Part shown: piece by piece, positions 53,389-55,277 of the stretch
Layout: the number at the start of each line of letters is the position of its first letter
Numbering within the stretch: the first letter of the stretch is position 1
Assembly (NCBI GenBank): GCA_035631715.1
Contig: DASQIF010000042.1
Location: 1,582-65,581, forward strand
From: Candidatus Acidiferrales bacterium
GTDB lineage: Bacteria > Chloroflexota > Limnocylindria > P2-11E
Direction of reading: 5' to 3'
DNA: 64,000 nt
Made by a program: the position numbers and the translations under genes
Notes under the pieces: generated by a model
The model's input: only the letters and a program-made list of their open reading frames with translations
Database searches by the model: none
Told to the model about the DNA's origin: nothing

Positions 53389-54813
53389 TCAGCCGCGGTC
53401 CAGCAACAGCGACATGCCGTCCACCATGTTCGTCATCTTGCCGAGGAACAGGCTGCCCTTCGCGATAAACAGCGCGTTGCGGAGCGAGCCATCGCGGAGC
53501 TTCGGCAGCGCGTGCGCGAGGTATGGGAGCGCGGCGGGGATGTGCCCCTGCGTCGGGACGAAACCCGGCATGCCGTGCACGCGCTCGAAACCGTCGACCT
53601 CTTCGCGCTTCATCTCGCCGCGCTGCACGCCGAGCGCGGCGATGATGCGGTAGTTCGTGCGCGGGACATTGCCGCTCCCCGCGGGCACGGTGATCTCGGG
53701 GTTGTGCAGCTCGACCGCGTACTTGTCGACGTCGGGGATGCGCAGGCCGAGATGACCGAGAGGCTCAGACACGAGCGCCTCGTAGATGGCGCCAGCGGAA
53801 CCGCCCGACGCGACGGTGTGCTTTCCCACCGCGTCGAGGCGCATGCGGACGCCGCTGCCGTCCGCGGGGCCGACGAGGATCGCCACGGACGCGAGGCAGT
53901 CCTCGAGCAGCGGCATGTCCTTCTGCATGTGGCCCAGCATCTTCATGCCGAGCTTCGCGAGCGATCCACCGCCGACGACGATCACGTTCTTGTACACGCC
54001 GCCCTGCACCAGCGCGCCCGCGAGCACGAGCGCGTGCACCGGCGCGCAGCAGAACGCCTTCACGTCCGAGCCGGTCGCCTGCGTGCAGCCGGCCATCTCG
54101 GCCATGGCCTTCGAGATGCTCCCGCCGCCGCGCTGGTAGCGGTCGCCGACCGCCTCCTCGCCGCAGCCGAGCAGGTACTCGACCTCGCCCGGCTCCATCT
54201 TCATCTGCGCGAGCAGCTCCTTCAGCGCGAGCGCGCCGGAGGCCTTGCACGCGAGGTTCTCGATGAGGATGTCCGCGGTCTGGCTCGAGTCTCCGGGATA
54301 GCCGTTCGCGATGCGGCCGACCTCGGATCCGTCCGCGGCGTTCAGTGAGATCGATCCGTCACTCGAGGCCGGCGGCTTCGCCGCCTTCACCGCGCGCTCG
54401 AGCTCGGCGTCGGCGAACAGGCCGGTGGCGCGGAGCAGATCGCGCGAGCGTTCGAGGCGCGACTTGTCGATGTCGAGGATGCCGAAGTCGTCGGCCATCT
54501 GGAGCAGACCCCAGAAGTGGTCCTCACCCACGATGCGACCCGCGGGTCCGGTCGCGCGCGCCCCCTCGTCACCGTGGCGCCACCACGGCTCGGGCACGCT
54601 CCAGAGCCACTCCGGGCCGTGATTGCCGATGAAGACCTGGTTCGGACCGTACGCGACCGCGTCGTCGAACGAGCGCAGGTGCGGTCGCATCTTGTCGAAG
54701 AGGCCGGGCTCGCGCGCGAGCTCGCGCGTCGGCTTCGAGCCATAGCGAAGAAGACCCGGGGTGTGGGAGATCACGCATGCGATGCCGCGGATGGTGGGGA
54801 ACGTCTCAGTCAT
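53389..54813 (-). CDS. grdC: Glycine/sarcosine/betaine reductase complex component C beta-subunit-like protein (GrdC-like)
   Basis: The N-terminus (GIACVISHTPGLLRYG...LRSFDDAVAYGPNQVFIG) matches my recollection of GrdC. Its start overlaps the grdA stop as ATGA. The assignment is from memory. Confidence 0.6.
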   Translation of the reverse strand: MTETFPTIRGIACVISHTPGLLRYGSKPTRELAREPGLFDKMRPHLRSFDDAVAYGPNQVFIGNHGPEWLWSVPEPWWRHGDEGARATGPAGRIVGEDHFWGLLQMADDFGILDIDKSRLERSRDLLRATGLFADAELERAVKAAKPPASSDGSISLNAADGSEVGRIANGYPGDSSQTADILIENLACKASGALALKELLAQMKMEPGEVEYLLGCGEEAVGDRYQRGGGSISKAMAEMAGCTQATGSDVKAFCCAPVHALVLAGALVQGGVYKNVIVVGGGSLAKLGMKMLGHMQKDMPLLEDCLASVAILVGPADGSGVRMRLDAVGKHTVASGGSAGAIYEALVSEPLGHLGLRIPDVDKYAVELHNPEITVPAGSGNVPRTNYRIIAALGVQRGEMKREEVDGFERVHGMPGFVPTQGHIPAALPYLAHALPKLRDGSLRNALFIAKGSLFLGKMTNMVDGMSLLLDRG

Positions 54814-55277
54814 GACCCGAGGGTACGCTCGCGCACTTTGCGGATGCTCTGCCAGATGTCGTCGGTCTGCATGGCGACCTCAGAGAGACCGATCTGGTCC
54901 TGGTAAATGGACGCGTCGGCCTTCTCCCGAACCTCTGGTTCGGTCACGTGATAGACGGGGAGTCCCAACGAGACTCCGGCCAGCGGACCTGTGTATGTCG
55001 GATCGCCTGCGGTGACCGTCTCAGCCATCATCTCGACGTACGCGGGCTCGGCCGCTCCGAGGATCACTACCAGCCCGTCCTTGCCCTGCGTGTCGTAGAT
55101 GCGCTTGATCTCGGTCTGCTCATCCAGGTCCGAGGCACCGGCGCTCGTTCAGACGAAGCACTGATTCAGCTCGAGCAGCACTTCGGCGCCGGCGCTCCGC
55201 GCCACCGCCGCGATCGCTGTCGCCTGCACTCCGTCACGCTCGCCGATCGCGATGACCTTCTTGCCTTGAAGATCCAA
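54810..55277 (-). CDS. grdA: Glycine/sarcosine/betaine reductase selenoprotein A (GrdA) with in-frame UGA-selenocysteine at 55149..55151
   Basis: A TTG start is preceded by a strong GGAGGGAGGTGA SD. Reading through the in-frame TGA gives MDLQGKKVIAIGERDG...NQCFV-U-TSAGASDLDEQ...[18 protein letters not shown], which is collinear with the GrdA consensus including the CFVUT motif. The ORF table lists only the 85-aa C-terminal part. Confidence 0.8.

Follow-up and report, generated by a model that had tools for sequence, protein, structure and literature searches.

Selenoprotein A (GrdA) is a component of glycine/sarcosine/betaine-type reductases, and the betaine and sarcosine reductases share GrdA and protein C. 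Candidatus Limnocylindria, the lineage considered here, are abundant, uncultured Chloroflexota of soil and freshwater. In the described systems, a CxxU motif has been listed for GrdA (PMC9312934), and the grdAB operon of Clostridium litorale, the subject of work from 1995, carries two in-frame TGA codons in one operon (cited in PMC13188914). Here we describe a stretch of 64,000 nucleotides of contig DASQIF010000042.1 (hereafter the window; GC content 69.3%), in which the minus-strand region between a TTG codon at 55277 and a stop codon ending at 54810 appears in mechanical gene calls as a fragment. We consider it highly probable (roughly 93%) that this region is a complete grdA gene, encoding selenoprotein A (~17 kDa) of a glycine/sarcosine/betaine-type reductase, in which an internal UGA would be decoded as selenocysteine (Sec).

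Readthrough of the in-frame TGA yields a 155-aa product, which contains the segments LDLQGKKVIAIGERDG...NQCFV*TSAGASDLDEQ...RERTLGS. With cysteine (Cys) substituted for the internal stop, this product was recognised by the NCBIfam model NF040748 (reduct_selen_A), the equivalog for "glycine/sarcosine/betaine reductase complex selenoprotein A", at 188.3 bits (E 7e-56; cutoff 130), the alignment running from residue 3 to 151 and over positions 1-149 of the 151 in the profile. All homologues bear an entry for Pfam PF04723, and no sequence relative of GrdA was found in the PDB. A first-pass annotation of the window had proposed that the protein matches GrdA end to end and includes a CFV-U-TSAG motif, and the alignment agrees with it; the redox pair stands in C40-F-V-U43. 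Its broader proposal of a full-length, UGA-interrupted grdA as a second selenoprotein gene beside grdB is likewise upheld by the equivalog match, the conserved TGA, the conserved start and the purifying selection described below. A 157-aa protein from a 27.5-kb ENA contig (P0048) is a GrdA homologue with Cys in place of Sec (CFVCTSAGAM); a survey published in 2006 reported no Cys homologues of GrdA.

The gene resembles an 85-residue fragment because ORF finders halt at the in-frame UGA. In the mechanical list of open reading frames (ORFs), grdA is represented by two pieces only, one of 85 aa (54810..55067), whose GTG start is codon 71 and which spans codons 71-155, and one of 56 aa (55149..55319), which begins at an upstream in-frame ATG. 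The first-pass annotation was right in describing the gene as split, and the TTG start, the strong Shine-Dalgarno (SD) sequence and the in-frame TGA from which it assembled a 155-aa protein were all read on the minus strand where it had placed them. The missing part comes to 70 codons and not 42, with 42 before the UGA and 27 between the UGA and the GTG.

Comparison with homologues carries the case further. A scan of GTDB species-representative genomes provided 14 loci, the ten closest of which (78-92% protein identity) come from metagenome-assembled genomes (MAGs) of Candidatus Limnocylindria or Chloroflexota, and a metagenome scan provided 80 further loci with 49-93% identity. The codon aligned to grdA codon 43 is TGA in 95 of 95 sequences, within the context C[FY]V-TGA-T[AS][AS]G. 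Within the Limnocylindria clade, the ratio of nonsynonymous to synonymous variation (pN/pS) is 0.11 in codons 2-42, 0.34 in codons 44-70 and 0.35 in codons 71-152. Codons 2-42 are thus the most constrained part of GrdA, and the values of 0.11 and 0.34 on the two sides of the UGA indicate that both flanks are translated. The conservation of the 42 codons upstream of the UGA, on which the first-pass annotation had made its call depend, was therefore found to be strong.

The shortened form of the gene is widespread in public data. Nearly all of the closest relatives (80-99% identity) in the public protein collection are 85-86 aa long and start at the same internal GTG or ATG, which identifies the shortening of grdA as a systematic gene-calling artefact across the clade. 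Public "full-length" GrdA relatives have tryptophan (W) at the Sec position and are therefore table-4 translations. A 266-aa ENA protein (P0001) combines a DehI-like domain (PF10778) with the last 100 residues of a close relative of GrdA, and this fusion is probably a mis-call across a UGA-split grdA. The gene is best annotated as a single coding sequence of 155 codons with a TTG start and a transl_except qualifier for Sec at codon 43; the same correction is due for dozens of soil-metagenome fragments of 85-86 aa named "GRDA".

We infer, from sequence evidence, that Sec is inserted at codon 43 of grdA. Part of this evidence is indirect and comes from the neighbouring grdB-like gene, whose product scores 438 bits against TIGR01918 (cutoff 65), a subfamily model and the sole partner-subunit cutoff that was passed. 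The in-frame TGA of grdB is conserved in every clade locus holding the gene, and the hairpin that follows it shows practically no variation among relatives; its GGU loop places G23 and U24 as in the selenocysteine insertion sequence (SECIS) of Escherichia coli fdhF. The Rfam model SECIS_4 gave a weak hit on grdB at a permissive threshold (17 bits against a gathering threshold of 38; E 3.9). The conserved UGA and the canonical GGU-loop hairpin of grdB argue that the lineage decodes Sec. The earlier claim of two selenoproteins in one operon is supported on the grdB side as well, by a conserved TGA in TAT-U-GTCNRCG and the canonical hairpin behind it.

In the sequence of events that we propose, translation of grdA would start at the TTG at 55277, directed by the strong SD sequence, and the UGA at codon 43 would be decoded as Sec by SelB and Sec-tRNA(Sec). 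SelB would be recruited by an mRNA structure 20-55 nt downstream, most likely the hairpin at +18..+42, after which translation would run on to the stop at 54810, the overlap of which with the grdC start may couple the two genes. The chemistry proposed for the protein is that of the characterised clostridial system (reviewed in PMC13188914). By homology, U43 would accept a carboxymethyl group from protein B (the grdB and grdE products), and cleavage of the selenoether would leave a Se-S bond between U43 and C40. The acetyl unit would then be converted to acetyl phosphate by protein C (grdC), and the Se-S bond of GrdA would be re-reduced by a thioredoxin system.

The structure behind the grdA UGA was compared with the published consensus of bacterial SECIS elements (bSECIS), which has an apical loop of 3-9 nt, a G among the first two loop positions, a UGA-to-loop distance of 16-37 nt and an energy of -7.5 kcal/mol or lower (PMC13188914). 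Among the candidate folds (hairpins A, B and C; Table 1), hairpin B satisfies all four rules, including the spacing (24 nt), the G at the first loop position and the energy. It has an ensemble probability of 0.83 in free RNA, is located inside a trough of synonymous variation, and has a CUG/CAG upper stem in common with the grdB element. Hairpin C becomes dominant (0.78-0.85) once the first 12-15 nt are held single-stranded, and neither its first nor its second loop position is a G. Synonymous diversity, computed across 21 unique clade sequences, reaches its lowest level in grdA in codons 49-60, and codons 44-48, which underlie hairpin A, show ordinary synonymous variation. In a sister GrdA clade (18 sequences), a perfect 7-bp hairpin CUUGACC[UGGAA]GGUCAAG occupies +19..+37, is 99% paired and shows one compensatory change from A-U to G-C; it is formed by Leu-CUU and Gln-CAA codons, both of which would be non-preferred at such G+C contents. 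No base-pair register was found to extend over the whole family; the pairing around this place takes a different register in different GrdA clades. The synonymous trough at +19..+54 and the sister-clade hairpin lead us to place the functional element at hairpin B and/or C, not A. The SECIS of grdA thus likely falls within +18..+55, with hairpin B as the most likely candidate for its form. Synonymous variation in grdA dips a second time over codons 96-107 (54957..54992, minus strand; 0.065 against a mean of 0.24), and a strong local hairpin signal occurs near these codons in many homologues.

A number of results weigh against this picture. No tRNA-Sec, selA, selB or selD was found in the window with ARAGORN, Rfam and Pfam, a search that took in nearly all plausible ORFs of the 64 kb, and the first 60 fetched loci yielded no selA, selB, selD or tRNA-Sec either. 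Neither grdD (protein C alpha) nor trxA nor trxB was found in the 64-kb window, and none of the three adjoins grdC/grdA in the sampled loci L011-L014, L054, L055 and L066. As for the SECIS, it is not uniquely defined, as hairpins A, B and C overlap and compete downstream of the grdA UGA, and hairpin B is without covariation, a Ser-to-Thr change (U19 to A) breaking its pair 19-41 in 8 of 19 relatives. The 60 nt that follow the UGA fold no better than shuffled sequences (z = -1.2), a sliding profile of minimum free energy (MFE) in 30-nt windows over 92 homologues has no dip after the UGA, and Rfam gave no match in grdA at gathering or permissive thresholds. As implemented here, the bSECIS rules accept 45 of 92 true sites and also 10-50% of control codons, with as many as 88% accepted at one unrelated hairpin; the consensus is non-specific in these GC-rich genes.

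Other accounts of the region were weighed against the same data. The splitting of grdA by mechanical ORF calling, together with the lack of Sec machinery in the window, would suit a pseudogene in which the TGA is a true nonsense mutation; this reading is effectively refuted by conservation, as the TGA stands at the same codon in all homologues, there is purifying selection on both sides of it, and its position is that of the catalytic Sec of the family. Hardly more probable is a reading in which near-cognate suppression or an altered code puts a standard amino acid (Trp, Cys or Gly) at the UGA, as the W that some public gene calls give by table 4 might suggest. TGA is the normal stop of grdA, grdB and grdE in this very operon and is therefore not a sense codon, the genome is that of a 69% GC Chloroflexota, the GGU hairpin of grdB is of the canonical SelB type and stands at the canonical distance, and characterised GrdA proteins have Sec at this position of the family. 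A question apart is where translation begins. Two ATG codons at 55307 and 55319 (-30 and -42) lie in frame with no stop between, ATG is the commoner start codon, and translation from either would add 10-14 residues. We regard such a start as very improbable, since neither ATG is preceded by an SD sequence, neither is in frame in relatives, and the ATG at 55319 sits within a conserved non-coding DNA motif. At the TTG, GGGAGGTGA is conserved at equal distance before the start in Limnocylindria loci, and, counted from the TTG, the NF040748 match starts at residue 3. An in-frame stop lies just 9 nt upstream of the TTG start of locus L018 and 18 nt before the aligned start in loci L003, L005, L020 and L021, and no alternative grdA start is possible in loci L004, L017 and L026.

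The remaining alternative accepts the gene as described and assigns the SECIS role to the short GGU hairpin A at +5..+21, the interrupted hairpin to which the first-pass annotation had drawn attention. This hairpin can be drawn as proposed, and covariation is seen at its pair 7-19 (A-U in 7 sequences, U-A in 8 and another combination in 4), to a degree reached by only 2 of 500 shuffles. The U19-to-A change that costs hairpin B a pair has a compensating change in hairpin A, and the bulged stem with its CGGU loop is like a SelB-binding minihelix. Its loop, nevertheless, starts only 8 nt after the UGA, against 16-37 nt in the published model, and the loop letters vary within the clade (CGGU, UGGU, AGGG, GGGC, CGGC). 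From ribosome footprints, the 5' arm would be expected within the ribosome while the UGA occupies the A site. The Ala-Gly-Ala codons impose the GC/GC core, the ensemble probability of the hairpin in the window's own RNA is below 0.01, the codons beneath it vary as other codons do, and nt 19-21 are part of the downstream hairpin in the sister clade. Hairpin A thus exists as a fold, and it is unlikely, on account of its spacing, variable loop and low probability, to be the working SECIS of grdA. Our preferred reading remains a Sec-containing GrdA initiated at the TTG, with a SECIS that is more probably hairpin B.

Table 1. Coordinates of the grd genes and of the sequence elements discussed in the text (positions in the window).
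Feature	Position	Strand	Remarks
grdA, full-length selenoprotein A gene	54810..55277	-	155 codons + stop; putative Sec at codon 43
TTG start codon of grdA	55275..55277	-	aligned codon in relatives GTG, TTG or ATG
grdA Shine-Dalgarno GGAGGGAGGTGA	55282..55293	-	core GGAGG 55289..55285; 7-nt spacer before TTG
In-frame UGA, codon 43 (U43)	55149..55151	-	probably read as Sec in C40-F-V-U43
Cys40 codon, partner of U43 in the CxxU redox motif	55158..55160	-	C40 invariant in the homologue alignment
grdA stop TGA	54812..54810	-	same frame as the TTG start
Hairpin A, CGAG-C-GC[CGGU]GC-CUCG, +5..+21	55131..55147	-	~-5 kcal/mol
Hairpin B, CUCGG-AC-CUG[GAUGAG]CAG-A-CCGAG, +18..+42	55110..55134	-	best SECIS candidate; -8.9 kcal/mol; in the MFE fold
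Hairpin C, loop CCGAGA, +27..+55	55097..55125	-	RNAalifold consensus
Codons 49-60 (+19..+54)	55098..55133	-	lowest synonymous diversity in grdA, 0.035 vs gene mean 0.242
grdC, protein C beta subunit	53389..54813	-	474 aa; NF040746 549 bits, cutoff 450
grdE/grdG-like subunit	55356..56660	-	434 aa; NF040793 250 bits, below cutoff 780
grdB-like selenoprotein B	56657..57970	-	437 aa; in-frame TGA 56926..56924 in TAT-U-GTCNRCG
grdB SECIS hairpin AUCGCUGC[GGU]GCAGCGAU	56895..56913	-	-11.7 kcal/mol; pair probability > 0.95
grd operon with flanks	50567..63931	-	syntenic in at least 7 Limnocylindria contigs (L001, L003, L004, L005, L007, L015, L019)

Around grdA, the order grdB-grdE-grdA-grdC is syntenic across Limnocylindria MAGs. 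ATGA overlaps join the grdB stop to the grdE start and the grdA stop to the grdC ATG, and these overlaps suggest translational coupling. No public record was identical to the window's GrdC in an exact-sequence look-up. Between grdE and grdA lies a conserved non-coding motif, CCGTCTCG-n6-GCGTGACG-n-CTCACGATGCGATAC (55311..55350, minus strand), which is kept in ~17 Limnocylindria loci amid variable intergenic sequence. A role as internal promoter or regulator site is possible; a scan of the operon for sigma-70 promoters and terminators called nothing, this motif included. In two loci, L009 (7217..9840) and L031 (54..2644), a second, divergent grdB-grdE pair (43-60% identity) stands beside a single grdA, and these pairs resemble the clostridial arrangement in which several substrate-specific B proteins share one GrdA.

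The substrate is the less settled part of the assignment. Against the equivalog models of the B subunits, the partner proteins scored 446 for GrdF (cutoff 800), 420 for GrdH (775), 394 for GrdB TIGR01917 (602), 250 for GrdG (780) and 105 for FarE (675), so that the GrdB-like and GrdE-like subunits fall below the glycine-, sarcosine- and betaine-specific cutoffs by a wide margin. The grdC gene stands alone, without a neighbouring grdD. In locus L055, the choline dehydrogenase gene betA (854 bits) and proV follow directly after grdA. These features hint at a betaine-like or a new substrate, and at a protein C without a nearby GrdD.

The syntenic block extends well beyond the four grd genes. It comprises, in order, a luciferase-like monooxygenase, SBP5, a second luciferase-like monooxygenase, two divergently oriented ABC permeases, grdB, grdE, grdA, grdC, a GMC oxidoreductase and an isochorismatase-like hydrolase, and the window has a flavin reductase at 59848..60420. 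Taken together, the locus looks like a dedicated catabolic island. We tentatively entertain the idea, which we hold to be possible and on the whole doubtful, that the cluster encodes a reductase of new substrate specificity in a probably aerobic soil bacterium, with GrdA as the selenoether carrier, without GrdD and with a non-canonical grdA SECIS. Elsewhere in the window, an ORF listed with 1088 aa (one or several genes) has molybdopterin-binding and FAD-binding domains of the xanthine dehydrogenase type, and there is a Rieske ring-hydroxylating dioxygenase pair; together they cover 39653..42919 and 45182..47994, both on the minus strand. Further luciferase-like monooxygenases and amidohydrolases occur in the window, and the region is rich in catabolic genes for nitrogen-containing compounds.

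The gene is a further member of a well-known family, in a lineage for which it seems to have gone undiscussed; we found no literature that treats Limnocylindria together with glycine reductase or selenocysteine. If our reading is right, Candidatus Limnocylindria carries a Grd-type reductase with two selenoproteins, which would imply a selenium requirement and Sec decoding for the lineage. The grdA gene itself is textbook, and the cluster, with its lack of grdD and its substrate, is the more interesting lead.

Set beside the GrdA proteins of Clostridium sticklandii, Eubacterium acidaminophilum and Clostridium litorale, the protein of the window belongs to the same 155-aa length class, matches the family profile end to end, contains the conserved sequence core and the CxxU motif with its in-frame UGA, and has grdB, grdE and grdC adjacent. 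The two in-frame TGAs of its operon, in grdA and in grdB, recall those of the C. litorale grdAB operon. It differs in its host, a 69% GC soil Chloroflexota (Candidatus Limnocylindria) and not a clostridial anaerobe, in its TTG start, and in sharing only about 46-50% identity with GrdA of the clostridial type. Unlike the clostridial system, the locus is without a nearby grdD or trxAB, and its B subunits stay under every substrate-specific cutoff. In its candidate SECIS, the element of grdA is like the bSECIS consensus in spacing, loop and energy, and differs from bacterial SECIS elements of the fdhF type (Rfam SECIS_4, RF01990) in its weakness (-8.9 kcal/mol), in a GAUGAG loop instead of GGU, in having no Rfam match, and in its competition with two overlapping folds. 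The betaine reductase (GrdH/GrdI) and the sarcosine reductase (GrdF/GrdG) are also among the closest known systems; GrdF, GrdH and GrdG are the models that gave the partner subunits their highest scores. The likeness to betaine reductase extends to related clusters that adjoin choline dehydrogenase and proV and to several relatives labelled "betaine reductase" by JGI, whereas the subunits of the window, unlike those of the described betaine and sarcosine reductases, miss all substrate-specific cutoffs.

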